Below are positions 1-54,586 of a stretch of DNA of 64,000 bases, one piece after another. The number at the start of each line of letters is the position of its first letter. The first letter of the stretch is position 1. Position numbers and translations under genes: made by a program. The stretch covers positions 2,021 to 66,020 of the forward strand of contig CALJTV010000005.1 in assembly GCA_937975645.1 (NCBI GenBank). The letters are read 5' to 3'. The notes under the pieces were generated by a model. The model searched no databases, had not been told where the DNA came from, and saw nothing but the letters and a program-made list of their open reading frames with translations. The DNA is from an uncultured Dehalococcoidia bacterium. GTDB lineage: Bacteria > Chloroflexota > Dehalococcoidia > GIF9 > UBA5629.

Positions 1-927
1 CTGTACATCCCACTTGTCAGCCGGGGCAAAGCTATAGGTGTCCTGAAAGTCAGCAATAAGACCCACAGGAGACTGTTTACCAGATACGACCTCGAGATGC
101 TCACTATACTTGCGGGTCAGGCGGCAACAGCTATAGAAAACGCCAGCCTTTTTAGCGAGATCAAAGTGGAGAAATCAAGGCTCTCTCGTCTGGTTAAAAA
201 GATCTTGCAAGCACAAGAGGAAGAGCGCTCCAGGGTATCCGACGAACTCCACGATACCATCGTCCAGTGGATTGTGAGCGCCTCCTACCACAGCCAGACG
301 GCCAAAGCTTTGATCGCCAGAGGAAAATTCAACGATGCCACTCTGGAACTGGAGGAGGCTAACCGGATAATCGACCAATCAATACGTGAGATCCGCCGCA
401 TCATCATTAACCTCCGACCTAACTTGCTCAGCGAACTTGGCTTACTAGAAGCCCTCCAGTACCACCTCAGAGCTATGGAAAGGGAGAGTGGGATTGTTTG
501 TCATTTTGCGGTGCAGGGTAAACCTCGCCCCCTCACCTGGCCCCGGGAAATAACCATATACCGCATAGTTCTGGAAGCGCTAAACAATATCAAAAAGCAC
601 TCCCGAGCGAACGAAATGGAGCTCGTCATCTGGTTCTCGCCAGATACGGTGCGAGTCTCGGTGGCAGACAACGGCATAGGGTTCGACCTCACAAAGGTAA
701 CCGAGAATGCCCATGAAAATGGTAGTATCGGTTTGTTGAGCATGCAAGAACGGGCAAACATGGTCGGTGGCGAACTGAAAGTAGAATCAAGCCCGGGTGC
801 CGGGACCACCATAACCCTCCTCATCCCCACCAGAAAGCGCGAGAACAAAAACGGCAACGGTGTACCGCCATTACCTATCAATGTCAAAGGAGGTAGCCAT
901 GACCACCATCAAAGTCATGATAGTTGA
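1..927 (+). CDS. Sensor histidine kinase, C-terminal part (end of GAF + HisKA_3 + HATPase_c); 5' end lies outside the window
   Basis: Frame 1 is open from nt 1 (LYIPLVSRGKAIGVLKV...AIENASLF, a GAF-like end). H-box 'SRVSDELHDTIVQ' is typical of NarX/DegS-type HisKA_3. ATP-binding boxes: 'EALNNIKKHS', 'DNGIGF', 'GLLSMQERA..GGELKVESSPGAGTT'. Confidence 0.85.
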   Translation: MYIPLVSRGKAIGVLKVSNKTHRRLFTRYDLEMLTILAGQAATAIENASLFSEIKVEKSRLSRLVKKILQAQEEERSRVSDELHDTIVQWIVSASYHSQTAKALIARGKFNDATLELEEANRIIDQSIREIRRIIINLRPNLLSELGLLEALQYHLRAMERESGIVCHFAVQGKPRPLTWPREITIYRIVLEALNNIKKHSRANEMELVIWFSPDTVRVSVADNGIGFDLTKVTENAHENGSIGLLSMQERANMVGGELKVESSPGAGTTITLLIPTRKRENKNGNGVPPLPINVKGGSHDHHQSHDS

Positions 928-1531
928 TGACCACCGTGTCGTCAGAGAAGGGCTACGCAGCATGCTACAGCTCGATCCCACCATCGAAGTGGTAGGTGAG
1001 GCAGACTGTGGGGAAAAGGTGCTAAAAGACGTGGAAAAACTGTCACCGGATGTTATCTTGATGGATGCCAAGATGCCAGATATGAGCGGCATCGAGGCTA
1101 CAAGACAGCTCAAAGAGCGGGGATGTAATGCCAAAATAGTCATCCTCACTGGCTATGAAGACAAGTATCTAACACAAGCCGCCGAAGCCGGCGCAACCGG
1201 CTACCTAGTCAAAGCTATTAGCCAAGAGGAACTGGTAAATGCGGTAAAATCAGCCTACTACGGTAAATCGCCGCTGTCGCCTGAGGTGACCCAGAGCCTG
1301 TTCCATACCTTCGCCACTTTTTCTAGACTCAACCGCAACAACCTGCTCACCCCACGCCAGCTTGAAATCCTCAGGCTCATCGCTGCCGGCGCCACCAACA
1401 AACAAATTAGCCAGAAGCTGTTTATCAGCGAGGCTACCGTCAAGAGGGAGACCAATGCCATCTTTGAAAAACTGGACGTTGTCGATAGGGCACAGGCAGT
1501 AGCCGAAGCCTACCGAAGAAACATCCTCTAG
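899..1531 (+). CDS. NarL/LuxR-family response regulator (REC + HTH_LuxR)
   Basis: 'KVMIVDDHRVVREGL', 'DVILMDAKMPDMSG', 'GATGYLVK', and C-terminal 'LTPRQLEILRLIAAGATNKQISQKLFISEATVK'. ATG at 899 follows AAAGGAGGT. The ORF-track start at 860 has no RBS and overlaps the kinase further. Confidence 0.9.
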   Translation: MTTIKVMIVDDHRVVREGLRSMLQLDPTIEVVGEADCGEKVLKDVEKLSPDVILMDAKMPDMSGIEATRQLKERGCNAKIVILTGYEDKYLTQAAEAGATGYLVKAISQEELVNAVKSAYYGKSPLSPEVTQSLFHTFATFSRLNRNNLLTPRQLEILRLIAAGATNKQISQKLFISEATVKRETNAIFEKLDVVDRAQAVAEAYRRNIL

Positions 1532-1668: not shown

Positions 1669-2250
1669 TTGGTCGCTTTTTTGTTGCCTTTTAGCACTTC
1701 CAGTCCCTTTGCACCAACTGCCACAATATGCATGAACATCTCAGCAAAGCGGGGGATGACAATGGATATAGCAATGTACAGCCGTCTTTCCAATTCTATG
1801 CATAGCGACAATCGTGACACAGCCATACGTGTAATGCTCATTGAAGCCAGACAGGCAATGCGGGAGGGATTGAGACAGATGCTCGAGGACGAAAACGGCA
1901 TCGAAGTAATCGCCGAGGCACCCGATACCCACACCGCGATTAGCCAGCTGAAGACGCTAGCACCAGACAGCATCATCGTCGATATTGAACCGGAAGTCGA
2001 CCATACTCCCGAAAAGGTGGAACGCCTGAAGAAAGTAATACGGCTACTCAGAAAAGCCGCCGAGCAAGCCAGCATCATTATCCTCAGCGACAACCATGAG
2101 CTACTGGCACCGGCAATTACCAGCGGTATAGCAGGCTACCTGACAAAAAGCGTTAATCGCGATGAACTCGCAGTAGCAGTGCGCATAACTAACCTGTGGC
2201 GGCTGGTGCTTTTCTCGAATCAGCAAAATTTCGCTCTGGTCAAGATTTAG
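1669..2250 (+). CDS. Stand-alone receiver-like protein (NarL-subfamily REC fold, atypical acidic pocket, no output domain)
   Basis: 'IRVMLIEARQAMREGLRQML' has E-A where the canonical DD pair sits. 'DSIIVDIEPE' retains a candidate phospho-Asp. An insertion replaces the usual MPxMxG. 'IIILS' and 'GYLTK' retain the conserved S/T and K. There is no HTH. The true start is uncertain (several in-frame Met codons between 1669 and about 1790). Confidence 0.55.
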   Translation: MVAFLLPFSTSSPFAPTATICMNISAKRGMTMDIAMYSRLSNSMHSDNRDTAIRVMLIEARQAMREGLRQMLEDENGIEVIAEAPDTHTAISQLKTLAPDSIIVDIEPEVDHTPEKVERLKKVIRLLRKAAEQASIIILSDNHELLAPAITSGIAGYLTKSVNRDELAVAVRITNLWRLVLFSNQQNFALVKI

Positions 2251-2365: not shown

Positions 2366-2986
2366 GTGGACAAACTGATCAAAACTATCTCAAGGCTGCA
2401 CAAGGGGGAAAGAGGTATGACTGGACTGGAGACAGCCATCATACTCATTGCCTTCGTCACTGTGGCTGCAGTATTCGGCTACGCAGTGCTGAGCGCCGGA
2501 CTGTTCTCCGCTGAAAGGGGTAAAGAGGTCATCTTCGCCGGTGTCGAGCAGGCAAAGACCAACCTGGAGGTGTCAGGGTCGGTCATCGGGTATGCCAACA
2601 ATGAGACACAGGAACTTACCACACTGCTGATAACAGTAAAGAACGCGGTCGCTGGTAACCCCATCGATATGACCCCCAACTGGGGGGATACTCTAGGACA
2701 GAACAAGACGGTCATCAGCCTTAAGACTGCTACTGAATACCTTCCCAACATAGCCTGGAACGTGACACCGGTAGGCGCAGCCGACAGTGACTACCTGCTC
2801 GAGGTCGGGGAGCAATTCCAGATCGAAATCGACCTCACTAACCTTGATGGAAATGGCACCGGGCTGGCCATTCCACTGGGACCCAACGACAAGTTCTCCA
2901 TCCAGGTCAAACCAGCGCTCGGCTCCACCATCATCGTGCAGCGGACATTGCCACCCGAGCTTGATACCGTTATGGACCTGTACTAA
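2366..2986 (+). CDS. arlB: Archaellin (archaeal flagellin, ArlB/FlaB family) with a class III (type IV pilin-like) signal peptide
   Basis: The N-terminus '...HKGERG|MTGLETAIILIAFVTVAAVFGYAVLSAGLF' closely matches the conserved archaellin N-terminus (compare crenarchaeal FlaB '...KG|LAGLDTAIILIAFIITAAVLAYVAINMGLF'). GTG start sits 7 nt after AAAGGAGGT. It is the first gene of the arl cluster. Confidence 0.85.
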   Translation: MDKLIKTISRLHKGERGMTGLETAIILIAFVTVAAVFGYAVLSAGLFSAERGKEVIFAGVEQAKTNLEVSGSVIGYANNETQELTTLLITVKNAVAGNPIDMTPNWGDTLGQNKTVISLKTATEYLPNIAWNVTPVGAADSDYLLEVGEQFQIEIDLTNLDGNGTGLAIPLGPNDKFSIQVKPALGSTIIVQRTLPPELDTVMDLY

Positions 2987-3025
2987 AAAGACCGTCGCTT
3001 GGTGAGGCACTGTCCTGAACAACAT

Positions 3026-3063
3026 CTCTCGGGCATCCTCACTGAAGTGGGGATGCCCGAGAG
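3026..3063 (+). promoter_or_regulatory. Strong intra-operon stem-loop between arlB and the next gene (attenuator or mRNA 3'-stabiliser candidate)
   Basis: Perfect 13-bp inverted repeat CTCTCGGGCATCC (3026-3038) / GGATGCCCGAGAG (3051-3063), extendable by G-U and C-G pairs to an 8-nt loop. It lies 40 nt after the arlB stop. It is followed by GCAAAAAGG, so there is no U-tract. Confidence 0.5.
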
Positions 3064-3083
3064 GCAAAAAGGGGACTTGTGAA

Positions 3084-3791
3084 ATGGGACTGGAACAGAG
3101 GATAACAGCCCTCGAAGATGAAATCAAAGTCCTGAAGAACGAAATAAAGGCGGTTCTTCTGGACATAAGAGAGCATTACCTGCAACTGAGCAATCCCTTC
3201 ACCTCTCTCAACACCCTAAAAGTCCCCAGTGTAGATGAGAGCGACGGATTAACTAACGACCAAGACAAATACGTAATAGAAGAAGGTAAGCACACCTCAC
3301 GGAATAGCAAGCCCCCCATACTATCCAAACCTGCTGAAATAAAGGAAGAGCCGGCAATGCATGACCACCAGTTCGTTACTGCCGAGCCCTCGGCTTCCGA
3401 CCTGGAAATGCTCCACTCCGTCGAGAACCATTCAATACCAGCAAGACCCAAAAGGCAGTCATTTAGGACGACGCACGACAGCAGTTTTGACTTGGTGGTG
3501 ATCGCAGGGCTCACCCAGTGGGTAGACCAAGCAACAGCCACTTTAGGTAAAGAAAGGGCTGAAGCCCTTGTTGAAATAGCCTATACCATGCGGCATTTCT
3601 CTACTGAGGTAAGAGATGCGCTTATTAGACTGATAAGGCTTTCGCCACGCGAAAATGGCATCAGCAAGATGATAGGCGCCAAGGACTATCTCGCAGTGCT
3701 CGCCCAACTGGACAACCTGCTAGCAAACGAGCACCACGAAAACACCCTGCTCTCCATCCTTACCATGATGAAGGAGGCTTCGGATGGATAA
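3084..3791 (+). CDS. arlCDE: ArlC/D/E-like archaellum accessory protein (N-terminal FlaC-type coiled coil + C-terminal FlaD/E-like domain)
   Basis: Heptad coiled coil 'LEQRITALEDEIKVLKNEIKAVLLDIRE'. The C-terminal 'LVVIAGLTQWVDQATATLGKERAEALVEIAYTMRHFSTEVRDALIRLIRL' resembles the FlaD/E C-terminal domain as I recall it. Its position between arlB and arlF/G matches euryarchaeal synteny. Confidence 0.6.
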   Translation: MGLEQRITALEDEIKVLKNEIKAVLLDIREHYLQLSNPFTSLNTLKVPSVDESDGLTNDQDKYVIEEGKHTSRNSKPPILSKPAEIKEEPAMHDHQFVTAEPSASDLEMLHSVENHSIPARPKRQSFRTTHDSSFDLVVIAGLTQWVDQATATLGKERAEALVEIAYTMRHFSTEVRDALIRLIRLSPRENGISKMIGAKDYLAVLAQLDNLLANEHHENTLLSILTMMKEASDG

Positions 3792-4251
3792 AGCATTGGT
3801 CACCATCCTGCTAATCATAGCCGGTGTGGTCTGCACCATGGTCATAGTCAATGCAGTATACCCACTAATAACCGGGACCAGCGGGGCACTGACAGATGCG
3901 GTCCAGAGGATAGACGACCGCATCAGGAGCAACATCAAGATCATCGAAATCTCCTCCAATGGCACAGATGTTTACATTTGGATAAAGAATATAGGCGCAT
4001 CTACCATCGGTGCCATCGATAAAAGCGATGTCTTTTTCGGTCCCGAAGGCAACTTCGCCCGAATACCGTTTGGAAGTACCGGCTCACCGCTGCCATATTG
4101 GGACTACACCCTAGAGGACGGTAGTGACGCTTGGAAACCATCTTCGACCTTAAAAATTACCATTCATTTACAGCAAGCCCAGTCCGGCACCCAGTTCATC
4201 AAATTCATTACGCATAACGGGATATCGGACTGGCAGCTATTTAGCATGTAG
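3784..4251 (+). CDS. arlF: ArlF/ArlG-family archaellum stator-like protein (N-terminal TM helix + beta-sandwich); ArlF by synteny
   Basis: N-terminal hydrophobic helix 'LVTILLIIAGVVCTMVIVNAVYPLI' followed by a beta-rich domain of about 120 aa. The 8-nt overlap (ATGGATAA) with the upstream gene indicates translational coupling. The F versus G assignment rests on gene order only. Confidence 0.6.
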   Translation: MDKALVTILLIIAGVVCTMVIVNAVYPLITGTSGALTDAVQRIDDRIRSNIKIIEISSNGTDVYIWIKNIGASTIGAIDKSDVFFGPEGNFARIPFGSTGSPLPYWDYTLEDGSDAWKPSSTLKITIHLQQAQSGTQFIKFITHNGISDWQLFSM

Positions 4252-4255
4252 CAAA

Positions 4256-4753
4256 ATGGAGAACTTAGTAATAACTCTAGCCTGTATTAGTCTGATACTG
4301 TTCGGAGCAGCAAACGTGATGATGGTCTCCTTACACTCAGTAGACGAATTCAGCCAGTCATGGAGCAACATCCAGAAATTGGCTAACGAAAGGGTACTCA
4401 CCAAGATAACTGCCACAGGTGCCGAAATTAACACACAAGGCGACCAGGTAACAATAACATTGCTGAACGAAGGAAATACATCCCTGTCTCAGTTCATCGC
4501 ATGGGACGTTATTTTAAGATATGGCGATGGGGATACGATCCGCTTACCGCACGGGCAGACAACACCGGGCTGGAGCATTTCCAGCATCTCATTCCAGGGA
4601 CTGCCCGAGACCCTCCAGCCAAGTATCCTAGACCCGGGGGAAGAAATGAACATCGTCCTAAGGCTATCAACCCCAGTGAGCGAAAACACTACCAACATGG
4701 TGACAGTCTCAACCCATAATGGCATCACCACCAGAATACTTTTCAGGAGGTAG
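4256..4753 (+). CDS. arlG: ArlF/ArlG-family archaellum protein (second paralogue); ArlG by synteny
   Basis: Same architecture: TM helix 'LVITLACISLILFGAANVMMVSL' plus a beta-rich domain. The gap from the upstream gene is 4 nt. It lies immediately upstream of arlH. Confidence 0.6.
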   Translation: MENLVITLACISLILFGAANVMMVSLHSVDEFSQSWSNIQKLANERVLTKITATGAEINTQGDQVTITLLNEGNTSLSQFIAWDVILRYGDGDTIRLPHGQTTPGWSISSISFQGLPETLQPSILDPGEEMNIVLRLSTPVSENTTNMVTVSTHNGITTRILFRR

Positions 4754-4758
4754 AAAAG

Positions 4759-5472
4759 ATGCCACAAACAGACACCGAGCCCAAAAAAGAACTGACGGTA
4801 TGTACCGGACAGAGCGAGATAGATAAAAGATTGGGCGGAGGCATACCCATGGGTTCATTGGTCCTCCTCGAAGGGCAATCAGACTCAGGCAAGTCGGTCC
4901 TGGTCCAGCAAATGACCTGGTCCTCCCTTCAAAACAACCTAAGAATACTGTTCTACACCACCGAAAATACGGTTAGAAGCCTGGACAAACAGATGGAAAG
5001 CTTAGGGTTAAGCATTACCGACTACATCCTCCTGGGCTGGGTCAAAATATTCCAGATAAAGTCCACTATCAGTATGCGGGACAATGCTTTCGGCACCATC
5101 GTCAAAGGCATCGAAGCGCACCCCGAATACAAAGTTGTGGTCGTAGATGCCGTAACACCGTTCATAGCCCACAGCTCCACAGAGGAGATAATCCGCTACT
5201 TCGAAGCATGCAAAGGGCTGTGCGATAGTGGTAAGACTATTCTTAACGTAGCACATACCTATGCCTTTGATGAGCAGCTACTTATACGAATAGGTTCAGT
5301 TTGCGATGCCCACCTACGTCTGCGAATCGAAGAGGTGGGAGAAAAACTGGTCAAAGTACTTGAGGTGGCAAAAATAAGAGGTGCTGATAAGAACACCGGG
5401 AACATTATCAGCTTCGATGTAGAACCCGGCATGGGACTAAAGGTACTGCCAATGGGCAGAGCCAAAGCTTAG
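4759..5472 (+). CDS. arlH: ArlH (FlaH), KaiC/RecA-like ATP-binding protein of the archaellum motor
   Basis: 'IDKRLGGGIPMGSLVLLEGQSDSGKSVLVQQM' (Walker A GxxxxGKS), Walker-B-like 'KVVVVDAV', about 237 aa. AGGAGG lies 6 nt upstream of the ATG. It sits directly before arlI. Confidence 0.8.
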   Translation: MPQTDTEPKKELTVCTGQSEIDKRLGGGIPMGSLVLLEGQSDSGKSVLVQQMTWSSLQNNLRILFYTTENTVRSLDKQMESLGLSITDYILLGWVKIFQIKSTISMRDNAFGTIVKGIEAHPEYKVVVVDAVTPFIAHSSTEEIIRYFEACKGLCDSGKTILNVAHTYAFDEQLLIRIGSVCDAHLRLRIEEVGEKLVKVLEVAKIRGADKNTGNIISFDVEPGMGLKVLPMGRAKA

Positions 5473-5487
5473 AGTGAGGGACACCAT

Positions 5488-7260
5488 ATGCCGCAGGTGG
5501 TACTGCCGTTTGAAGTTAAACCAGGCAAGCAAAAGGACACAGCGACTTCCATGGCGAGCATCCAGCAAAGCTTGTCACCAGACTTTCAGGAGGTCACTAG
5601 AAGGAGCCCATTTCTGCTCCGCTACCTCTGCATGTTGCCCCTTAAGGAAATCGGTCTGCCTAGATATTGTGCCAAGCTGGAAAGGAGTATGTCTGAGATA
5701 CGTAAGCCGAACATCATCTACCCCGTCAAAGGCGGCACCTTTGTCCACATTCTTTTCGACCCTGATGACGCCCGCCACCACTACATCATCATCGAGCCAA
5801 TCCTCAACGATAACCTAGAACCGCTGCTCCAAGAGTTGGAACTAAGGATGCTTAACTTGTCCGACCTATTGCTAACCACCAAGAGCGACGATGAAGACTC
5901 CAAGAAAGCCACTTTCCTCCGCATACTGGACGAGCTGTGCGAGGTCACCACTACTACACCGGCACAGAACACATCTGCTAAGAACAACAAAAAAAACGGT
6001 AAGTTGCCATTCCACCCAAATGACCTTAAAGCCCTCCTTTCCAGAAAGGTCGATAAAATCCAAGTTACCCCTCACCAGCTGCAATGCCTTAAGTATTTGA
6101 TAATCAGGGACAAACTTGGGCTGGGAATAATAGAACCTCTAGTACGTGACACTTACCTCGAAGACATCAGCTGCAGCGGCATGGGTATGATTTATGTGGA
6201 GCATAAAATCTTCCACAGTCTTAAGACCACCATATCATTCCCTACCCACGAGGAGCTGGACTTGTTTGTCATGCGCCTCTCCGAGCGTATGAAGAAACCG
6301 GTCAGTATCCACAACCCCATTTGTGATGCTACCCTACCGGATGGCTCCAGAATAAACATAGTTTACGGGAAGGACATCTCAAAGCGTGGCTCCAATTTCA
6401 CCATACGCCGTTTTAGCGAAACACCACTTTCCGTGTTGGAACTGATAGAGATGGGAACACTGGATTACAACATGGCAGGGTACCTGGCAGTAATGATAGG
6501 CGAGGGTATGAACACCTTCGTCTGCGGCGAGACAGCTTCAGGAAAGACGACCACACTCAATGCGCTGACCACCTTTATCCACCCGAATGCCAAGATAGTA
6601 AGCATAGAGGACACCCCAGAACTTCAGGTGCCACACAAAAACTGGATAAGGGAAGTAACGTCGACCAAGGAAGGAAGCGAGAGCGGGGTGACCATGTTTG
6701 ACTTACTTAAAGCAGCGTTGAGGCAGCGCCCGAATTTCATCATAGTGGGCGAGATCCGCGGTGCTGAGGGCGCCATAGCCTTTCAGGCAATGCAGACAGG
6801 TCACTCGGTCATGGCAACTTTCCACGCTGCCTCGGTGGAAAGGCTGATACAGCGCCTTACCGGAAACCCAATAAATGTCCCCAAAACATACATGGACAAC
6901 CTGAACCTGGTGGTTATTCAGAGCGCCGTGAAACTGCCGTCAGGCAAGACAGGACGCAGGATGACCAGTATATGCGAAATTGTAGGATATGATCCAGTCA
7001 ACCAGTCCTTCTCGTTCGTCGAGGTCTTCCGCTGGGACTCTGTCAACGACTCTTTCATCTTTAGTGGCTTCGGCAACAGCTACCTGATGGAATACAAGAT
7101 AGCACCAAAATTGGGGATCCCCCAGTTCCAAAAGAAAAGAATCTATGCGGAGATCGACCGCAGGGCTAAAGTACTGGAGAAACTGCACAAGCAAGGGGTA
7201 ACCAACTTCTATGAACTTCTCAGCATTCTTGCCAAAGCTAAAAACGAAGGACTCTTCTAA
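5488..7260 (+). CDS. arlI: ArlI (FlaI), type II/IV secretion-family hexameric ATPase of the archaellum
   Basis: 'VCGETASGKTTTLNAL' (Walker A), 'IVSIEDTPELQ' (Asp box), 'PNFIIVGEIRGAEG' (Walker B), 'GHSVMATFHA' (His box). The N-terminal domain is long, with a low-complexity insert. Confidence 0.9.
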   Translation: MPQVVLPFEVKPGKQKDTATSMASIQQSLSPDFQEVTRRSPFLLRYLCMLPLKEIGLPRYCAKLERSMSEIRKPNIIYPVKGGTFVHILFDPDDARHHYIIIEPILNDNLEPLLQELELRMLNLSDLLLTTKSDDEDSKKATFLRILDELCEVTTTTPAQNTSAKNNKKNGKLPFHPNDLKALLSRKVDKIQVTPHQLQCLKYLIIRDKLGLGIIEPLVRDTYLEDISCSGMGMIYVEHKIFHSLKTTISFPTHEELDLFVMRLSERMKKPVSIHNPICDATLPDGSRINIVYGKDISKRGSNFTIRRFSETPLSVLELIEMGTLDYNMAGYLAVMIGEGMNTFVCGETASGKTTTLNALTTFIHPNAKIVSIEDTPELQVPHKNWIREVTSTKEGSESGVTMFDLLKAALRQRPNFIIVGEIRGAEGAIAFQAMQTGHSVMATFHAASVERLIQRLTGNPINVPKTYMDNLNLVVIQSAVKLPSGKTGRRMTSICEIVGYDPVNQSFSFVEVFRWDSVNDSFIFSGFGNSYLMEYKIAPKLGIPQFQKKRIYAEIDRRAKVLEKLHKQGVTNFYELLSILAKAKNEGLF

Positions 7261-8749
7261 AGGAGCGAAGAGCGCCCAGAACAAAAAAGAGTCCGTCAAT
7301 ACCGAACTGCTCGGTGTCGACCTGTTCTGCCACCTGACATATATGGCAGCCGTTTCAACATCAAAACTGCCACGCCACATCGTCTTCGAGTACGCAGCCA
7401 AATTACCCTACATATCTTCTCGATACATAAGAGATGTTACCTTCTTGGCACATCAGCTAAATTACGACTATCCTGAAGCATGCCGCATGATAGGGCAGAG
7501 GGCTAAAGAGCCCGAAGTGCGAGCCCTCCTCCTCAGAATGTCAAACTCCTTCGCCTCGGGCGAGGATGAAGGGGAGTTTCTAGCCAGAGAGGCTTCTGTG
7601 GCCGGTGAAATATATTCAGAACAGTACCAGCACAGCGTCGAAAGCCTGAAAAAATGGACTGATGCTTATGCCGCACTCATCCTTTCCGCTGCCCTCATCG
7701 TGGTCATCTGCGTGGTCTCCATGCTCATCTTCCCCATGGACAAGAACACCATAGCCGTGCTCACCTGGTTCATGCTTGTAGCTATAATGGCTGGCGGCTG
7801 GATTATGTACCGTGCCTCGCCAAAAGAGACCAAGACACACTCTCTCGAAATTAAGTCGCCAGAGCAAGAGATAGGCACCAAACTGTTCAAAGTCATGGTG
7901 CCTCTAGCTGGCATCGTTGGGCTGGTGTGCTTAATTGCCGGGGCACCGCTGGGTGTCACCATGTTGTTACTCGCTGTCCTGCTCCTTCCCCCAGGTCTAG
8001 CACTGTTTATCGACGACCGGAAAATAGACAAAAGAGATGCCGAGATAGGCGGCTTTCTCAGGTCAGTGGGCAGCATCAGTAAAGCTATAGGTGCCACCAT
8101 AGCTGAGACGCTGGACAGACTGGACTACAACGCCCTTCACTCTCTTAAAAATCTCGCTCAGAAATTAAAAGCTTCGCTGAGCTTTGGCATCACACCGCAG
8201 CTATGCTGGCAGAGGTTTGTTGGCGAAACAGGAAGCGAGACCATCCACCGCAGCGTACGCACCTTCTATGATGGTGTCGAACTCGGTGGCGACCCAGAGG
8301 TAATCGGTACCGAATGTGCCGACCTCGCCATGAAGGTCTCTCTGTTGCGAGAAAAAAGGAAAGCAGTGGCTTCGAGCTTTTCCTATCTTTGCATAGTGAT
8401 GCATACAGCCATAGTAGCGCTGCTTGTAGGCATCTATCAGGTCGTACTCAAATTCTCAGAAGCCCTGCAAACGGCTGGGGAATCAGGTGCTATGGAGGGA
8501 CTCACCGGTCTGCCCGTGTTCCAGCTTATCCACGATGCCAGTCAGCTTTCTCAGCTTAAACTCATGACTACAGCCCTGATAATCGTACTCACGCTGGTAA
8601 ATCCTGCAGCAATAAAATTTGTCGAAGGGGGTCACAATTACAAGTACCTTTTCTACCTCAGCATAACTCTGGCGATCTCAGGGCTCTGTCTTCTAGCTGT
8701 CCCCTCTATGGTATCCAACGTGTTCGGTTTCATATCCTTAATAAAGTGA
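7211..8749 (+). CDS. arlJ: ArlJ (FlaJ), polytopic membrane platform protein (TadB/C-GspF-like, duplicated)
   Basis: 'LFCHLTYMAAVSTSKLPRHIVFEYAA' matches the conserved FlaJ N-terminal motif. Multiple TM segments are present and the domain is duplicated. The only in-frame start upstream of the conserved block is ATG 7211, a 50-nt overlap with arlI. Confidence 0.85.
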   Translation: MNFSAFLPKLKTKDSSKGAKSAQNKKESVNTELLGVDLFCHLTYMAAVSTSKLPRHIVFEYAAKLPYISSRYIRDVTFLAHQLNYDYPEACRMIGQRAKEPEVRALLLRMSNSFASGEDEGEFLAREASVAGEIYSEQYQHSVESLKKWTDAYAALILSAALIVVICVVSMLIFPMDKNTIAVLTWFMLVAIMAGGWIMYRASPKETKTHSLEIKSPEQEIGTKLFKVMVPLAGIVGLVCLIAGAPLGVTMLLLAVLLLPPGLALFIDDRKIDKRDAEIGGFLRSVGSISKAIGATIAETLDRLDYNALHSLKNLAQKLKASLSFGITPQLCWQRFVGETGSETIHRSVRTFYDGVELGGDPEVIGTECADLAMKVSLLREKRKAVASSFSYLCIVMHTAIVALLVGIYQVVLKFSEALQTAGESGAMEGLTGLPVFQLIHDASQLSQLKLMTTALIIVLTLVNPAAIKFVEGGHNYKYLFYLSITLAISGLCLLAVPSMVSNVFGFISLIK

Positions 8750-9384
8750 GGCTGTGTATGGACTTCTGGCAATTCGGCATTTACATAGTGATACTCAGCG
8801 GGGCTTCCTCCCTAGTAATCATGACCATAGTCCTCATGGTGAGAAAAATGAGCCAACATACACCTCCACAGTCTAGAGCTAAAAGTAAAACCACCGCTAA
8901 CGAGTGGGCACATGCACCATCCAGCAAGGGTACGGCTGCGTCCGCTACACCACCCACACCAAGCCTCACAGAACAAAGCAAGGTCACCCACGAGGAAACA
9001 ATACAACCGGAACCAGCACAGGAGAGTGCCAGGCTGGATATCACTGAAGAATTGTCGCTGTCAAGCCCGTTGAGCACACCGGGAACAATAGAACCCGCTT
9101 TGCTAGGCGGGGCTAGCGTGCTTGAGCCATCAGGAACAATCGAAACGGTGCTGACAGAGGCGAGCAGCGTGGCACCCGAACAAGCCGATGACCAAACAAA
9201 CGAAGAGTATGACGCAGCAAACAATGAAAACGACGACCCGTTGAGTATCTTCCACATGGAGGATACTCAGGAAAACCCTATCTCTGAACTCAGCGTTTCA
9301 CTCCCTGATATCGATGCATCAAGTCTGCTCAAGGAAGGCAAGGAGATTTTGAGAATTCTGGGGGTCGAAGCAGAAGAGTACTAA
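8746..9384 (+). CDS. Single-pass membrane protein with a long acidic, S/T/P/E-rich, probably disordered domain; unknown function
   Basis: GTG 8746 overlaps the arlJ stop (GTGA); an alternative ATG is at 8758. TM helix 'FGIYIVILSGASSLVIMTIVLMV' is followed by RK. The remainder is low-complexity and acidic, ending in an amphipathic 'LLKEGKEILRILGV'. I recognise no family. Confidence 0.55.
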   Translation: MRLCMDFWQFGIYIVILSGASSLVIMTIVLMVRKMSQHTPPQSRAKSKTTANEWAHAPSSKGTAASATPPTPSLTEQSKVTHEETIQPEPAQESARLDITEELSLSSPLSTPGTIEPALLGGASVLEPSGTIETVLTEASSVAPEQADDQTNEEYDAANNENDDPLSIFHMEDTQENPISELSVSLPDIDASSLLKEGKEILRILGVEAEEY

Positions 9385-9400
9385 AGTACAGGGGGTTACT

Positions 9401-11116
9401 ATGAACAGACAGGATATTCTCCAACAAAAAGACTTACCATCCAATTTCAGACAGAATCCCCTGCCGCAGAAAAAGCGCCACACTACAACTTCCCTGTTCG
9501 GAACCGCTGCGCGCGGTCCCGTGCGCTACTTCTGTTTCGCAATGTTGCTGGCATCATTGCTATTCTCTGCAAGCAAAGTATCTGCTGACAATAGCAAACC
9601 GCGCATCAGTGTACTTCCGGGGCAGGGTCCTGTAGGGACCGAGGTCATCGCACAAATATCTGGCTTCCCAGCTAAGACAGGGGTACTCATCGCCGCACGA
9701 GAGAAGACTTGCATCGTGCAGAAAACAGTAACAGATAACGACGGCGTTGCCCTGGCAACCTTCAAAATAGCAGAGCAGCCAGCCGGCTGGTGTCAGATAT
9801 GGGCTTACGACGAGACAAACATAGCTTGGGTAATGTTCACGGTCGTACCCTCGGTCGAACTCAGTAAAACATCCGGGTACGTCGGCGAAGAAGTGTCCGT
9901 CAATGCCTACGGCTTGGCTGAAAAAAGAGAGGTTACAGTGTATTTCGACGGGAAAAAGGTGGCAGTAGGACAGACGAACGAAAAAGGCACGGCGAGCGGC
10001 CTGACTTTCAAAGTGCCGAAGAGCTGCCGGGGTAAGCACACCATAACAGTCGACGACGGCAAAAACGAGAGCCAGGAGACATCGTTCCTCGTCCACCAGA
10101 AGTTCACTATGGCACCCAAAAGCGGGCAGCCCGGCACCGAGGTCACGGTCTCTGGCACTGGGTTCGCTGCCTCCACCGATGTGATCATCTATTTTGACGA
10201 TAGAGATGTTGCTTTAGCACCCACAGATGACACAGGTAGCTTCACCGCCAACTTTAGGGTGCCTAAAGCTGCCGGAGGAATGCACAGCATCAAGGCTGAC
10301 GATGGCACCAACCGCTACTATGAGGACTTTGCCATCGAAGCTGCGATAGTGCATAACCCCAAAGAAGGTGCTGTTGGCGAAAAGGTGGTTATCGAGGGTG
10401 CCGGCTTTACCCCCAACACACCAGTAACAATCAGTTTCGACAACAAGAAGATCGGGACCACCACCTCTACAAGCGAAGGCTCCTTCATCTTCACCTTCAA
10501 CGTGCCGTCCTGCCTCCACGGCGAACGGACAATTACCGTGTCGGACGGCTCTGTCACCAGACAGGCTAAGTTTATGGTGGACTCCACACCACCTCCTGTA
10601 CCTCGCTTGCTTAGCCCATCAGGCGGCTCCCGTCTTACCAGTGTAACCACCTTCGAATGGGAAGAGGTCACAGACGCCAGCGGTGTCAAGTACGTCCTTG
10701 AAATAGCAACCGATACAGAATTTTCAAACGTAATTATCTCCGCAAAAAACCTGGCTTCTCCCCGATTTACACTTTCCCAGGAGCAACAAAAGCTACTCAA
10801 ACCAGCCAAGACCCCCTACGTATGGCGGGTAAGAGCCATCGATGGTGCTTTCAATTCAAGCGATTGGGCTGAGACAAGATCATTCTTCGTCGGAGCCACT
10901 GTATCTACCGTGGTGAAAAATATGCCGCCTTGGGTGACTTATTCATTGCTTGGCTTGCTTTTTGCCCTGATCGCCACCTTTTTCTACTACCTTGGCTATA
11001 TAAGAAACCAGAAACAGAGCGACTATGCTGAATTGACAATTGACGAGCAAACTCCCCAATGGGAGCAATACGACGAGACCAACTACACTGGTAGCAAAAA
11101 AATGGGTTACAAATGA
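9401..11116 (+). CDS. Cell-surface protein: signal peptide, 4 tandem Ig-like (IPT/TIG-like) repeats, one Fn3-like domain, C-terminal TM anchor
   Basis: Signal-like 'FCFAMLLASLLFSASKVSA|DN'. The repeats carry 'G.PGTEVTVSGTGF...V.IYFD...TD..G.F...F.VP....G.H.I...DG'. Also present: 'TTFEWEEVTDASGVKYVLEIATDTEF...WRVRAIDG' and the TM 'WVTYSLLGLLFALIATFFYYLGYI'. The gap after the upstream gene is 17 nt, with GGGGGT before the ATG. Confidence 0.75.
   Translation: MNRQDILQQKDLPSNFRQNPLPQKKRHTTTSLFGTAARGPVRYFCFAMLLASLLFSASKVSADNSKPRISVLPGQGPVGTEVIAQISGFPAKTGVLIAAREKTCIVQKTVTDNDGVALATFKIAEQPAGWCQIWAYDETNIAWVMFTVVPSVELSKTSGYVGEEVSVNAYGLAEKREVTVYFDGKKVAVGQTNEKGTASGLTFKVPKSCRGKHTITVDDGKNESQETSFLVHQKFTMAPKSGQPGTEVTVSGTGFAASTDVIIYFDDRDVALAPTDDTGSFTANFRVPKAAGGMHSIKADDGTNRYYEDFAIEAAIVHNPKEGAVGEKVVIEGAGFTPNTPVTISFDNKKIGTTTSTSEGSFIFTFNVPSCLHGERTITVSDGSVTRQAKFMVDSTPPPVPRLLSPSGGSRLTSVTTFEWEEVTDASGVKYVLEIATDTEFSNVIISAKNLASPRFTLSQEQQKLLKPAKTPYVWRVRAIDGAFNSSDWAETRSFFVGATVSTVVKNMPPWVTYSLLGLLFALIATFFYYLGYIRNQKQSDYAELTIDEQTPQWEQYDETNYTGSKKMGYK
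9602..10579 (+). repeat. Four tandem intragenic repeats of about 81-83 codons (Ig-like domains)
   Basis: Protein residues about 68-148, 149-231, 232-312 and 313-393 align on shared motifs (GxxVxVxGxGF, YFD, F.VP, G.H.I). The copies are diverged at the DNA level. Confidence 0.7.
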
Positions 11117-11136
11117 ACTGAAAAAGGAGTCAGACA

Positions 11137-12885
11137 ATGATGAGCACACGCATCTATCGCAAACTAAAAATTGAGTCCCGGCAATTGAAATGGCTCATCC
11201 TGGCTATGGCTGGGACCGTCCTGGCAGCAATACAGATAATGAACTGTGTTTTCTCAGGAAAAGAGCCAATCCATGGTGTGTTTGACTGGGCCTTCGCCAT
11301 GGCAATAATTGCTGCGCTTGTCATTTTCAGCTTTCAGTATCTGGGTAAAATTCAAGATGAACTGGTAACCAAAGAACAGGAAGCTACCGAGTCCAGGAGA
11401 AGTCTGCAACACATAATCGATAACACCGAGGATGCGGTAATGGTATTCGACAAATCGGGAAACTGCACCTTTGCCAACAGAGCTCTGGAAAGAATGAGCG
11501 GCTACCCGTTAGATAAACTGACCACAATGAATCTTCACGAGATTCTCACTCCTGAAGACTATCGCTTCCTCATGGATAAAATACAGAACAGCCCTTTGGC
11601 CGAGCTTGCCATTTACGATGACTTCTACTGCGCCCTCCAGCGACGGCACGAAGGAAAGGTGCCAGTGAAAATGCATCTCATGCCGGTGAAAAATAGGGCT
11701 GGCGATATATCTGGGTTCGAAGCCGTCATCCGCGAGCTCAGAGACCAACATTATGAGACAGAAAGGACACACCAGGAGAGGGAACGTTGTCTCAAGGCTG
11801 TTGCCAAAGTGGGACAGATCATGCTCGCCTCGCAAACAGAAATACCATACGGACAAATACTGGAGCTGCTCGGTGGGACTATAGAAGCTACCAGTGCCAG
11901 TATAACCCTGCGTAACGGCAGCTCTAACGGCTCAGAAACCCTGATCAAAATAGCTGATTGGCAAAGCCACCACCTTGTCACTGAAACATCTAATGGCGCC
12001 TCTCCCTGCGTCACATTCGGCATGGAAGCCCCGCAAAAGGGGCAGATAGCGAACACCATCGCAGCCCCGGCACCCCACAGCCACCACCCACCGGCACTTA
12101 TCCTGCCCCTGGTCACTTCCGAAGGACCACTGGGATTCATCACCTTTTGCAAGCAGCCAGGAAACGATAAATGGAGCCCGCTCCATATCAATCTATTGCA
12201 GACTGCCTCAAGCATGCTGGCTGGAGCCATTGAACGCCAGAGGACGAACAAGCTACTCAAACAACACTTTATCTCCCTGGCCCGGGCAATGGCTGGCTCT
12301 CTCTCTTTTATCGACCCATATACCGCCAGCCACCAAGAGCATGTGGCTAGGATGGCACGTCAGATAGGCATAAGACTGGGACTGAACAGCGAGCAATGCG
12401 AATGGCTACATTTCGGCGGACTCCTTCACGATATAGGGAAAGCCGCTATCCCTGTTTCAATCCTTTCCAAACCGGGAAAACTAGAAGCAGAGGAATGGGT
12501 ACTGATAAAGTCACACGTTAAGCGGGGCTGCCAGCTCCTGCAAGAAATCGAACTACCTGAAATAGTAATCAAAATGGTGCTACAACACCACGAACGGCTT
12601 GACGGGTCAGGCTACCCCCATGGCGTCTCTGGCGACGAAATCTGCCTAGAGGCACGCATCCTCGCTGTTTGCGACGTGGTTGAAGCCATGGGCTCCCACA
12701 GACCTTACCGCCCTGCCTTGCCACTGGAGCAAATACTTTCTGAATTGAAGAGCAACCGTGGGACCAAGTACGACGAACAAATAACAGAATTGATGCTGGA
12801 ACTGATTACCTCAGATCCGGGATTCATCGTGTCAGACAGCAATTTCAAGGTAGCAACAAGCGCATTACCGGGAAAAACAACCTGA
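11137..12885 (+). CDS. Membrane-anchored PAS-GAF-HD-GYP protein (predicted c-di-GMP phosphodiesterase)
   Basis: Two N-terminal TM helices. PAS ('LQHIIDNTEDAVMVFDKSGNCTFANRALERMSGY'). A central GAF-like region. HD-GYP core 'HQEHVARMA...GGLLHDIGKAAIP...HHERLDGSGYPHG'. AAAGGAGT lies before the ATG, 20 nt after the upstream stop. Confidence 0.85.
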   Translation: MMSTRIYRKLKIESRQLKWLILAMAGTVLAAIQIMNCVFSGKEPIHGVFDWAFAMAIIAALVIFSFQYLGKIQDELVTKEQEATESRRSLQHIIDNTEDAVMVFDKSGNCTFANRALERMSGYPLDKLTTMNLHEILTPEDYRFLMDKIQNSPLAELAIYDDFYCALQRRHEGKVPVKMHLMPVKNRAGDISGFEAVIRELRDQHYETERTHQERERCLKAVAKVGQIMLASQTEIPYGQILELLGGTIEATSASITLRNGSSNGSETLIKIADWQSHHLVTETSNGASPCVTFGMEAPQKGQIANTIAAPAPHSHHPPALILPLVTSEGPLGFITFCKQPGNDKWSPLHINLLQTASSMLAGAIERQRTNKLLKQHFISLARAMAGSLSFIDPYTASHQEHVARMARQIGIRLGLNSEQCEWLHFGGLLHDIGKAAIPVSILSKPGKLEAEEWVLIKSHVKRGCQLLQEIELPEIVIKMVLQHHERLDGSGYPHGVSGDEICLEARILAVCDVVEAMGSHRPYRPALPLEQILSELKSNRGTKYDEQITELMLELITSDPGFIVSDSNFKVATSALPGKTT

Positions 12886-12913: not shown

Positions 12914-13069
12914 TCAGCGCTTTGTCGATATCTCCCGATAAGCGGCAATGGCAAAAGCCACTGCCATGAGTCCAAAAGCCACAGCAATAAGAGGGGTGCC
13001 CTGAAACATAGCACCCGCTATGGCACCAAAAAGGGCTGCTACCGTGGCCACTGACCAGATGACCGCCAT
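12914..13069 (-). CDS. Small two-TM membrane protein (51 aa), unknown function
   Basis: 'MAVIWSVATVAALFGAIAGAMFQGTPLIAVAFGLMAVAFAIAAYREISTKR'. The internal ATG at 13069 is preceded by GAGGAGGT at a 9-nt spacing; the longer ORF-track start lacks an RBS. Confidence 0.4.
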   Translation of the reverse strand: MAVIWSVATVAALFGAIAGAMFQGTPLIAVAFGLMAVAFAIAAYREISTKR

Positions 13070-13202
13070 TTTCCTATTTACCTCCTCTCGGCTGCCCGCA
13101 GCACCACAGGTGAAGAGTTCAGGTAACATCTATGCTGCAAAGCTGACTTTGATTACCAGTATACAATAACTGATTGCGTTATGCTAGACTTCACGGAGCA
13201 AA

Positions 13203-13901
13203 TCACCGGTACGCGCGGACAAAATGACACTTCTCGCTTATCCGACAGAGGCAATTCACCACATCTGGATCGTAGAGGATATCCCTACACCTCACAATTT
13301 CTTCCAGCGCCTCTTCAGGGCTATGCGCCGGACGGTATGGGCGGTGGGAAACCATAGAATCAAAAACATCTGCCACAGCCACTATCCTCGCCTCAAGGAT
13401 TATCTCGTCACCACGTAGTCCTGTCGGATACCCGCTTCCATCTAACCTCTCATGGTGGTGCAGCACCACCTGAGCAACAGGCCAGGGAAATTCAAGGTTT
13501 TTTAGCACGTCATGACCGACCTTGGAATGTGACTTGACAAGGTTAAACTCCTCAGCACTAAGCCTGCCTGGCTTGTTAAGAATCTCGCCTGGAAGGGTTA
13601 CTTTGCCTATATCATGGACCATGCCCATCACGCAGATACCATCGTTTTGCTGCTCACTTAGCCCAAGCTCTTTGCCTAGAGCGTAAGCTAACTGGGCTAC
13701 CCTTAGCTGGTGTTCAGCAGTATAAGCGTCCTTCTTCTCACACAGGGTGACCATTGCCCAGATTGCCTTATTCAATACCTTCTGCTCAACGACAAATTCT
13801 GGTCCCGTCCTACCCCTTAGGCCCAAAAGCTCCCAACTTCCATCAATAGGACCGCCACCGTTGTCCCGTCCACAAGAGCGAGTCATTTTTCTGTCCTCCA
13901 C
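13203..13901 (-). CDS. Stand-alone HD-GYP domain protein (predicted c-di-GMP phosphodiesterase)
   Basis: 'YTAEHQLRVAQLAYALG', 'GMVHDIGKVTLP', 'HHHERLDGSGYPTG', 'VADVFDSMVSHRPYR'. Confidence 0.85.
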   Translation of the reverse strand: MEDRKMTRSCGRDNGGGPIDGSWELLGLRGRTGPEFVVEQKVLNKAIWAMVTLCEKKDAYTAEHQLRVAQLAYALGKELGLSEQQNDGICVMGMVHDIGKVTLPGEILNKPGRLSAEEFNLVKSHSKVGHDVLKNLEFPWPVAQVVLHHHERLDGSGYPTGLRGDEIILEARIVAVADVFDSMVSHRPYRPAHSPEEALEEIVRCRDILYDPDVVNCLCRISEKCHFVRAYR

Positions 13902-49028: not shown

Positions 49029-50315
49029 TTGGCTGAGATCAGTCCCTTCTACGGAGTGCGCTATAATCTATCAATAGTAAAGGATATGGCGTCAGTCATC
49101 TGCCCGCCCTACGATGTCATCTCTAAAGACGAGCAGAAAGCCTACTATGAGAGGAGCCAGTACAACATTATCCGCCTTGAGCATGCCATGGAACTGCCCG
49201 ATGACTCAGCCGATGACAATAAACACGCTCGCGCCGGCGCCACGCTCGATCAATGGCTTAAGCAGGGTGTGCTGGTTACCGACCACGTACCTTCGCTCTA
49301 CATCCATGAACAGACATTCATTTACCAGGGCACCAGGAGGCGCCGCCTTGGATTTACTGCCTGTGTGAGGCTGGAGCCATGGGAAAAAAGGATGGTCCTC
49401 CCCCACGAAAACACCGTCGCCGGCATCAAGAGCGACCGTCTGGACCTTATGCGGGCATGCAACGCCAACTTCAGCCCTCTCCTCGGCTTGTACGAAGACC
49501 CCGGGCAGAAAATCGCCAAACTGCTCAGCGTGCAGACCAGCAGAAAGCCTGTGCTGGACTTCACAGCAAATGGGGAGACACACAGGCTCTGGGTAGCAAA
49601 TGAACCAGAGTTCATCCAGCGTATAAGCCATTTCCTGGCACCCAAGCCAGTCTACATCGCCGACGGGCACCACCGCTACGAGACGGCACTGGCTTACCAG
49701 GCAGAAAAGCGTCAAAATAGCCCGTACGTCAGCGGACACGAGGCTTTCAACTTCGTTATGATGACACTGGTGTCCTTCTCCGACCCCGGCCTGCTGGTCC
49801 TGCCAGTCCACCGCGTGGTCAGAGGCATTTCCAGCGAGAACATGAAACGCTTTATCCACGAATTGGCTACCGTGTTCCACACAGAATCACTGCCCCTCGA
49901 AAACACAGCCAGAATACCGGAGATGAACAGCGTGATAGCCAGAGTGATAGGACTAGAAGAAGGGTCTGTGACCGGATTGAGGCTGCGCCCAGATGTGCAC
50001 ATTAGAGCGGTCATGCCACCAGGACATTCCGATGCCTACAATAAGCTGGAGGTCAGCATCCTGCAACACCTGGTCATCGATAGACTCATTGCCATTGACA
50101 GTAGTGTGTCAATAGCATATACGCCAAGTCCCGAAACAGCTGTGAGGATGGTGGACCAGGGTGACTACCAACTGGCTTTTATCCTGAACCCTATTCCGCT
50201 CAGTGCCATCAAGGCAATAGCCGACGCCGACGATAGGATGCCAGGAAAATCGACCTATTTTTACCCTAAACTGCCGACCGGTCTGGTCATCAACCGCTTA
50301 GAAGGGACCTTATGA
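49029..50315 (+). CDS. DUF1015-family protein
   Basis: 'FYGVRYN', 'ICPPYDVI', 'HENT....K.DR', 'IADGHHRYETA', 'MP.KSTYFYPK'. TTG start after GAGGAGGT. Confidence 0.8.
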   Translation: MAEISPFYGVRYNLSIVKDMASVICPPYDVISKDEQKAYYERSQYNIIRLEHAMELPDDSADDNKHARAGATLDQWLKQGVLVTDHVPSLYIHEQTFIYQGTRRRRLGFTACVRLEPWEKRMVLPHENTVAGIKSDRLDLMRACNANFSPLLGLYEDPGQKIAKLLSVQTSRKPVLDFTANGETHRLWVANEPEFIQRISHFLAPKPVYIADGHHRYETALAYQAEKRQNSPYVSGHEAFNFVMMTLVSFSDPGLLVLPVHRVVRGISSENMKRFIHELATVFHTESLPLENTARIPEMNSVIARVIGLEEGSVTGLRLRPDVHIRAVMPPGHSDAYNKLEVSILQHLVIDRLIAIDSSVSIAYTPSPETAVRMVDQGDYQLAFILNPIPLSAIKAIADADDRMPGKSTYFYPKLPTGLVINRLEGTL

Positions 50316-54580: not shown

Positions 54581-54586
54581 ACCCCA

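Follow-up and report, generated by a model that had tools for sequence, protein, structure and literature searches.

A probable arl2-type archaellum operon with bacterial additions in a Dehalococcoidia chromosome

We analysed a 64,000-nt stretch (the window; all coordinates are window positions) of contig CALJTV010000005.1 from the genome assembly of an uncultured Dehalococcoidia bacterium (GCA_937975645.1), in which a first-pass annotation had recognized a complete gene cluster for an archaellum, the archaeal flagellum. Seven contiguous open reading frames (ORFs) occupy positions 2366–8749 of the plus strand, as that annotation had placed them, and encode, in order, the archaellin ArlB, a divergent ArlD/E-type protein, ArlG, ArlF, ArlH, ArlI and ArlJ (Table 1). 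Profile scores and Protein Data Bank (PDB) matches put arlG ahead of arlF, reversing the order first given for this pair. Regulatory genes precede the cluster, and three further genes follow it closely. The locus is very probably a vertically maintained arl2-type archaellum operon of a Dehalococcoidia bacterium, falling within the published Chloroflexota lineage derived from Methanotecta-like Euryarchaeota and extended with bacterial genes. Numbers up to L036 denote the 36 related loci found in a scan of one genome per species.

Table 1 Features of the archaellum locus and its flanks
Feature	Position	Strand	Basis
Sensor histidine kinase, 3′ part (cut by window start)	1–927	+	HisKA_3 44.9 bits, HATPase_c 53.8 bits
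RR1, NarL/LuxR-type response regulator	860–1531	+	Response_reg 105 bits, GerE 61 bits
RR2, stand-alone atypical receiver	1762–2250	+	Response_reg 49.3 bits; start ATG 1762 from 162-aa L001 orthologue
arlB, archaellin (filament subunit) with class III signal peptide	2366–2986	+	Arch_flagellin, PDB archaellins
18-bp hairpin, inverted repeat I2	3026–3063	+	Between arlB and ArlD/E-type gene
ORF2, putative divergent ArlD/E-type (ArlCDE-slot) protein	3084–3791	+	Transitive homology and position
arlG (ORF3), stator/periplasmic filament-like protein	3784–4251	+	ArlG profile, FlaG 5tug
arlF (ORF4, weakly assigned), stator protein	4256–4753	+	Exclusion and position
arlH, KaiC-like ATP-binding motor component	4759–5472	+	FlaH profiles, 4yds
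arlI, hexameric motor/assembly ATPase	5488–7260	+	FlaI profile, 4ii7
arlJ, polytopic membrane platform	7211–8749	+	ArlJ profile; 50-nt overlap with arlI
ORF8, membrane-tethered acidic protein	8758–9384	+	Family profile; start ATG 8758 inferred from orthologues
ORF9, Ig-repeat membrane protein	9401–11116	+	TIG 48.9 bits, GxPGS_dom 66.5 bits
Membrane-bound PAS-GAF-HD-GYP protein, predicted cyclic di-GMP phosphodiesterase	11137–12885	+	HD_5 128 bits, HD 73.6 bits, PAS 41.5 bits

The motor proteins were identified by profile and structure-database searches. ArlI (Walker A motif GETASGKTT) scored 672 bits against the FlaI model NF058587 (cut-off, 550), with BasE (202 bits) and TadA (147 bits) as runners-up, and matched FlaI (PDB 4ii7) with 460 bits compared with 154 bits for CpaF, in line with the earlier view that the cluster is an archaellum rather than a Tad pilus. 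ArlH (Walker A motif GQSDSGKS) exceeded the cut-off of the FlaH model PRK06067 (254.5 bits; cut-off, 194), did not reach that of the ArlH model NF052589 (184.9 bits; cut-off, 215) and matched FlaH 4yds (E = 5e-28), confirming it as an archaellum component. ArlJ aligned with NF004703 over residues 20–507 of 512 (443 bits, E = 1e-132; equivalog cut-off of 570 not reached) and narrowly passed Pfam T2SSF (25.8 bits; cut-off, 25.2). A stator pair is also present, as ORF3 and ORF4 both pass Pfam Arch_flagellin (32.5 and 31.0 bits, respectively). ORF3 is ArlG-like (NCBIfam ArlG 37 bits versus ArlF 21.8 bits, both under the equivalog cut-off of 110; FlaG 5tug, E = 3.1e-9). For ORF4, the scores for NCBIfam ArlF (21.7 bits, far under the 110-bit equivalog cut-off) and Pfam FlaF_Ig-like (22.9 bits; cut-off, 28.4) and the ambiguous PDB matches (FlaG, 5e-4; FlaF, 7e-3) only weakly indicate arlF, together with exclusion and position. 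For both proteins, the hits to the ArlG and ArlF models themselves were weak.

The filament protein ArlB (206 aa) matched Arch_flagellin over residues 17–192 (84.6 bits; cut-off, 29.5) and fell slightly under the cut-off of the TIGR02537 N-terminal domain (18.4 bits; cut-off, 20). Its best PDB match was 9i5h (E = 6.5e-31), identical in sequence to 9SIE/9SII, the archaellum filament entries of Litorilinea aerophila; ArlB is hence archaellin-type rather than a Flp or type IV pilin, as first proposed. The archaellins of the PDB (9i5h/9sie, 7txi and 5tfy) align from residue 19, and the mature chains of 9i5h and 5tfy start one residue ahead of T19, from which cleavage of ArlB is predicted after Gly17, between KGERG and MTGLETAIILIAF. 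The gene is preceded by the Shine–Dalgarno (SD) sequence AAAGGAGGT. Behind arlB, just 5′ of the SD of the ArlD/E-type gene, lies a perfect 18-bp stem without a U-tract (folding z-score, −5.9). In L001–L007 this position is likewise taken by a hairpin, though the stem sequences differ, and 7 of 14 pairs are altered on both sides, which points to maintenance by compensatory changes. The hairpin possibly acts as an mRNA stabilizer or attenuator that sets an excess of archaellin over the motor proteins.

The second gene was linked to the ArlCDE slot through its archaeal counterpart. A hidden Markov model (HMM) of the ORF2 family, run against 496 ORFs, recovered the Methanosarcinaceae gene of the same slot over its full length (E = 2e-29 to 5e-29; BLASTP with ORF2, 23% identity, E = 3e-17). 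When 49 family members were scanned singly, Arch_fla_DE (PF04659) was found in the Methanosarcina member alone (22.1 bits; cut-off, 21), in a stretch that aligns to ORF2 residues 141–201; the 47 other bacterial members of the alignment, A1 (45 database homologues, L008 and L022), had zero direct Pfam matches, Arch_fla_DE included. Because the family HMM reaches a slot gene that carries Arch_fla_DE, transitive homology, together with position, allows ORF2 to be regarded as an ArlD/E-type protein of divergent sequence. The arlC/D/E-like gene of the first-pass annotation thus stands as a homologue of the Methanosarcinaceae slot gene, but not by a direct profile hit. An AlphaFold 2 (AF2) model of ORF2 showed a confident N-terminal coiled-coil helix, joined through an acidic, disordered linker to a C-terminal domain of five helices.

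After a gap of 97 nt 3′ of arlB, the successive arl junctions measure −8, +4, +5, +15 and −50 nt, a spacing that would imply translational coupling. Gaps of 8, 16 and 20 nt precede ORF8, ORF9 and the HD-GYP gene, respectively; given these junctions, the operon probably runs past arlJ, a single transcription unit spanning 2366–12885 in which the HD-GYP gene comes last. The 50-nt arlI/arlJ overlap is kept in relatives. Two Dehalococcoidia loci, L020 (4496–6271) and L022 (11743–13518), have approximately 1.8 kb between arlI and arlJ, which overlap in other loci, as would follow from an insertion. In L033, on a 2.2-Mb Dehalococcoidia contig, arlB (5378–6001) and the ArlD/E-type gene (4640–5284) are opposite in strand to arlG–arlJ, apparently through a local inversion, and the ArlI match is split.

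Some of the earlier arguments from layout and signals needed revision. The gene order had been called euryarchaeal; Methanosarcina and Archaeoglobus do share it, but it is the arl2 order, common also to Thermoproteota. An SD had been reported before every arl gene, but arlF, which starts 4 nt past the arlG stop, has none. As SD motifs are not restricted to bacteria, they are a weak argument for bacterial wiring. The sigma-70 argument is similarly weak: 11 sigma-70-like sites were counted against 12.0 ± 3.7 by chance, and we dropped the reported sigma-70 promoters as a sign of such wiring. The arlG–arlF order has also been noted for Chloroflexota clusters (PMC12488501).

The surroundings of the cluster are bacterial, as first described. 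PlsX, FabF, PurL/PurQ and a bacterial-type TyrS exceeded profile cut-offs, and the window further encodes FabL, DAHP synthase, RibF, SerA, NarL-type two-component systems, GGDEF and HD-GYP proteins. In tetranucleotide usage, the arl region correlated at 0.825 with the remainder of the window, inside the window's own range (0.823–0.909), and its GC content lay within the window spread; the composition is continuous. Among the 36 related loci, 31 are bacterial (metagenome-assembled genomes (MAGs) or chromosomes) and five belong to Methanosarcinaceae (ArlI 49–55% identical). Thirty of the bacterial loci carry the label Dehalococcoidia, Chloroflexota, Chloroflexi or Chloroflexia; that of the remaining one (L017) is Acidobacteriota. 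The closest relatives are Dehalococcoidia MAGs with ArlI 87–94% identical and the same flanking genes: by tblastn, the independent assemblies L001–L003 have a gene order identical to that of the window, both flanks included (histidine kinase and two response regulators upstream; HD-GYP, HpaB and GH3 downstream), L005 has both junctions without HpaB/GH3, and L004 is cut upstream and shows the downstream junction only. The arl genes and their immediate neighbours are conserved out to L007, and related loci lie on megabase-scale or complete Dehalococcoidia chromosomes (L022, L026, L030, L033 and L036). The window showed neither significant repeats flanking the cluster nor tRNA genes, mobile-element genes or Rfam families there, in agreement with the reported absence of transposase, integrase and flanking repeats. 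A recent island, tried as an explanation, was rejected on this ground and on that of the ordinary composition. Across all seven arl genes, dN/dS was 0.03–0.19 relative to three orthologous loci (dS, 0.5–1.4), which indicates strong purifying selection and argues that the cluster is functionally maintained. These relatives, the composition, the dN/dS values and the Methanosarcinaceae homologues support the first-pass proposal of a domesticated, horizontally acquired archaellum in a bacterial chromosome.

Three observations concern hosts. One MAG (MFD04408.bin.2.112) holds two archaellum loci on separate contigs (L009 and L010), each approximately 55% identical to the window ArlI, consistent with the second loci published for a few genomes (PMC12488501). 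L017 is an archaellum fragment on a 5.8-kb contig with 0.49x coverage that was binned as Acidobacteriota; it is most likely a mis-binned Chloroflexota contig, not a new host phylum. In the window itself, four minus-strand genes at 52728–57012 resemble those of a Bzd-type benzoyl-CoA reductase or of 2-hydroxyacyl-CoA dehydratase and include two activase ATPases along with double-cubane-type subunits; they indicate a probable strictly anaerobic lifestyle, which fits a habitat common with methanogens.

The gene behind arlJ belongs to an unannotated protein family. Of the 26 bacterial loci with enough sequence beyond arlJ, 24 have an ORF8 homologue directly 3′ of that gene by family HMM, whereas none was detected in the five archaeal loci. 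All three family members picked independently of ArlI lie right behind arlJ of archaellum clusters on metagenome contigs. Members are acidic and for the most part disordered, and share two short conserved motifs in the C-terminal part; in the window protein, a transmembrane (TM) helix and approximately 130 disordered residues precede the motifs DDPLxIF and LSxxLxDIDxxxLL (AF2 model and alignment). The window clade has a TM helix at the N terminus and other members a soluble motif, and in a third arrangement the module is followed by a TM helix and a pair of LysM domains; the family comprises soluble forms, membrane-tethered forms (as in the window) and forms in which a peptidoglycan-binding TM-LysM protein is fused on or comes next. 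The positive-inside rule predicts a cytoplasmic position for the conserved module in every architecture. A full-length profile reached 109 database clusters, all unannotated (‘hypothetical’), and a profile of the 75 C-terminal residues gave only three matches in 5.8e9 proteins because it is too short for a database of this size. Archaeal ORFs behind arlJ looked alike by eye (notably in L029) and were rejected as ORF8 relatives, the best archaeal E value being 6.8 after four HMM iterations. The LSxxLxDIDxxxLL motif presumably bears some likeness to the CheY-binding EIDALL of FliM; the spacing differs, and we give the idea low weight. Tandem short and long copies occur in one clade (L012 6548–7977, L018 7498–9293, L030 13284–14896 and L036 13298–14751), the long copy adding a TM helix and two LysM domains to the module. 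P0172 and P0217 combine a single module with LysM; P0172 lies directly 3′ of arlJ without a separate short copy (L037).

ORF9 combines four Ig-like repeats (IPT/TIG, PGS-type) and an fn3-like domain with an N-terminal signal or anchor and a TM helix at the C terminus; its TM segments fall near residues 36 and 510 (dN/dS ~0.1). It is syntenic in L001–L007 only; in L038–L041 the equivalent slot is taken by a LysM protein, and in the LysM-bearing clade a LysM membrane protein comes after the short ORF8 gene. The HD-GYP protein retains the motifs HDIGK and HHERLDGSGYP (dN/dS ~0.11), and ORF8, ORF9 and the HD-GYP gene are syntenic throughout L001–L007. Where the arl operon ends, a second HD-GYP gene (13203–13901, minus strand) faces the first, with a 71-aa two-TM ORF (12914–13129) between them; with a PAS-GGDEF gene at 50310–52040, the window is rich in cyclic di-GMP (c-di-GMP) turnover genes.

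Upstream, the histidine kinase (L001 orthologue, 545 aa) pairs with RR1, and both are kept ahead of the arl genes in L001–L006. RR1 is 94% identical in L001 (dN/dS, 0.03–0.05), is followed by a terminator-like hairpin with a T-rich tail (1563–1586) and is a candidate transcriptional regulator of the locus. RR2 ends 115 nt upstream of arlB and is syntenic in L001–L007 (dN/dS ~0.1). Among the orthologues the acceptor Asp is invariant and the DD pocket is changed to EA (as in the window), ES, HR or DS; the window protein has a 7-residue insertion and carries a unique conserved tail (LWRLVLF…FxLVK). The L006 and L007 orthologues are without the conserved Thr/Ser and Lys. RR2 looks like a pseudo-receiver.

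By analogy with archaea and L. aerophila, a class III signal peptidase from another locus of the genome would cut pre-ArlB after Gly17. An ArlI hexamer with ArlH would then polymerize ArlB on the ArlJ platform, after which ATP hydrolysis by ArlI would rotate the filament against a stator of ArlG/ArlF and a cytoplasmic ring of the ArlD/E-type protein. Filament rotation and swimming are suggested by gene content and purifying selection. To the operon the clade has added the tethered acidic protein ORF8, the Ig-repeat envelope protein ORF9, the HD-GYP c-di-GMP phosphodiesterase, and the upstream NarL-type system with its degenerate receiver. Our best inference, drawn from linkage and domains, gives ORF8 and ORF9 a role in fitting the motor to the bacterial envelope, with the regulators linking its expression to bacterial signalling. 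ORF8 could alternatively stand in for CheF, the HD-GYP enzyme would lower c-di-GMP while the motility operon is expressed, and the NarL-type system and degenerate receiver may govern expression. A bolder and rather doubtful proposal is that the ORF8 family, with its cytoplasm-facing motifs, constitutes an undescribed lineage-specific eighth component of Chloroflexota archaellum loci, either a stator anchor tying the motor to the bacterial envelope or a CheF replacement, and that the HD-GYP enzyme puts an archaeal motor under c-di-GMP control, which archaeal donors are not known to use.

Several observations weigh against reading the locus as a working archaellum of published descent. ArlF, ArlG and ArlJ score under the NCBIfam equivalog cut-offs. 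ORF2 has no Pfam or NCBIfam match (Arch_fla_DE not at E ≤ 1), no PDB sequence match by profile and no structural match (Foldseek of the AF2 model against the PDB; best E = 1.6). A scan of the ORFs of the 64-kb window found no class III signal peptidase (Peptidase_A24), che or glycosylation genes, so the cluster first called complete has its seven arl genes but its signal peptidase would lie outside the window. For Dehalococcoidia, expression, assembly and rotation are predicted from genes, and the roles of ORF8, ORF9, the HD-GYP protein and RR2 are proposed from conserved linkage and domain content only. The neighbour-joining tree of ArlH, ArlI and ArlJ, built from simple distances and midpoint-rooted, includes Methanosarcinaceae as its only archaea. 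Bootstrap support is 100% both for the split of archaea from bacteria and for the sub-clade that unites the window with L001–L003, L005 and L006. In the published history, an arl2-type cluster passed once from Methanotecta to Dehalococcoidia and Anaerolineae (PMC12488501); the tree agrees with this, its archaeal sampling being too narrow for an independent test.

We weighed four other explanations. That the cluster encodes a non-rotating archaeal-type adhesion pilus or secretion pseudopilus is improbable: the archaellum is itself a member of the type IV filament superfamily, ArlF and ArlG stay under curated cut-offs, the window is without chemotaxis genes and an Ig-repeat surface protein shares the operon, but the archaellum-specific ArlH, ArlG/F and ArlD/E-type genes are all there in arl2 order, ArlI is above the FlaI equivalog cut-off with its 672 bits, and the archaellin is nearest to the subunit of the filament with which L. 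aerophila swims. Moreover, the published phylogeny splits archaellum from pilus clades and has the Dehalococcoidia loci in the archaellum clade (PMC12488501). No more credible is a separate, more recent transfer from Methanosarcinaceae into the window clade, to which we assign a slim chance. The window ArlI is 54–55% identical to those of Methanosarcina and 50–56% to those of other Dehalococcoidia clades, and the window clade is nearest to the archaea in the midpoint-rooted tree; the 100% archaea–bacteria split and the ameliorated composition speak against such a transfer, as does the ORF8 family behind arlJ, which is a shared derived character of the bacterial loci since it is common to the window clade and other bacterial clades and undetected in archaeal loci.

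The remaining two concern artefact and decay. A chimera that joins methanogen and Dehalococcoidia genomes through mis-assembly or mis-binning is effectively refuted, even though the source is evidently a 203-kb MAG contig and L017, with its Acidobacteriota label on a low-coverage 5.8-kb contig, shows that mis-binning occurs. Both junctions recur in L001–L003 and L005 and the downstream one in L004, four independent Dehalococcoidia assemblies (L001–L004) share flanks with the window, related loci sit on megabase-scale or complete chromosomes, and the nearest archaeal proteins are only ~54% identical; recurring flanks, continuous composition and the lack of island signatures together led us to reject both the chimera and the recent-island readings. 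A decaying relic whose machine no longer works is strongly disfavoured and has hardly any probability. The signal peptidase and che genes are not nearby and several components score under curated thresholds, but no ORF is truncated relative to homologues, the Walker motifs are preserved, dN/dS is 0.03–0.19 at a dS of 0.5–1.4, and the translational coupling and arlI/arlJ overlap are conserved.

Among known systems, the Tad (Flp) pilus shares the type IV filament superfamily, has an ATPase and a platform as well as a prepilin of class III type, and likewise came from an archaeal system by ancient transfer (PMC12488501). Tad systems are without ArlH, ArlF/G and ArlCDE, whereas the window has ArlH, ArlG/F and the ArlD/E-type protein, and its filament protein carries a full archaellin beta-sandwich domain in place of a short Flp; the ATPase scores, the 206-aa archaellin and the presence of ArlH with ArlG/F all set the locus apart from the Tad/Flp group. 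With Sulfolobus acidocaldarius (FlaI 4II7, FlaH 4YDS, FlaG 5TUG and FlaF 4P94), the window has the arlG–arlF order in common (ArlI, 460 bits to 4ii7; ArlH, E = 5e-28 to 4yds; ArlG, E = 3e-9 to 5tug), and the ArlI/ArlJ architecture is also common to Sulfolobus and Chloroflexota archaella (PMC12488501). Thermoproteota, however, have ArlX where the window locus has the ArlD/E-type protein, and the Sulfolobus sequences are much more distant. The arl2 loci of Methanosarcinaceae (L023, L025 from Methanosarcina sp. Mfa9, and L035) have the same seven genes in identical order, with identities to the window of 54% for ArlI, 48% for ArlH, 42% for ArlG, 36% for ArlJ, 33–36% for ArlB and 23% for ORF2, whose Methanosarcina counterpart carries Arch_fla_DE. 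They differ in their archaeal host, in the ORF behind arlJ, which is not detectably related to ORF8 (best E = 6.8), and in ArlI, which aligns only from approximately residue 42 of the window protein.

The closest characterized system is that of L. aerophila, a member of the same phylum with the same gene set, arlG before arlF and an off-locus peptidase (PMC12488501; PDB 9SIE/9SII). Archaellum clusters have been described in 243 of 3,780 Chloroflexota genomes, Dehalococcoidia included (Sivabalasarma et al. 2025, PMC12488501), in which the signal peptidase sits off-locus, and L. aerophila has been shown to possess a functional archaellum, with the filament structure solved and swimming filmed (PMC12488501). 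SAR202 isolates with an archaellum were reported earlier, later publications deal with chemosensory coupling and the cell envelope, and IMG labels near-identical proteins ‘flagellin FlaB’ and ‘FlaI’; the prior notice of such clusters in Chloroflexota that the first-pass annotation mentioned is therefore in print (PMC12488501, PMC10444878). An archaellum in a bacterium was remarkable before 2023–2025 and is now established. The window locus is one more Dehalococcoidia example, and its accessory genes are the newer part: as far as we have read, the ORF8 family, ORF9, the HD-GYP gene, the upstream histidine kinase, NarL-type regulator and degenerate receiver, and the hairpin behind arlB are absent from published accounts of Chloroflexota archaella. 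L. aerophila belongs to Caldilineae/Anaerolineae and is the only bacterium in which archaellum function has been demonstrated, whereas the window host belongs to Dehalococcoidia and its locus is known from genes. The L. aerophila ArlB is the best PDB match of the window ArlB (E = 6.5e-31), with the same register of the mature N terminus. Unlike in L. aerophila, no PilN or PilO-LysM genes were seen beside the window cluster, which has instead the TM-tethered ORF8, the Ig-repeat ORF9, the HD-GYP gene, the NarL-type two-component system and the degenerate receiver. How an archaeal rotary motor is anchored in bacterial envelopes without PilN/PilO is posed as ‘unknown’ in the envelope paper, and what replaces the CheF adaptor has also been asked in the literature; the ORF8 family, its LysM-linked forms, ORF9 and the HD-GYP gene offer testable candidates for these anchoring and CheF-replacement roles.

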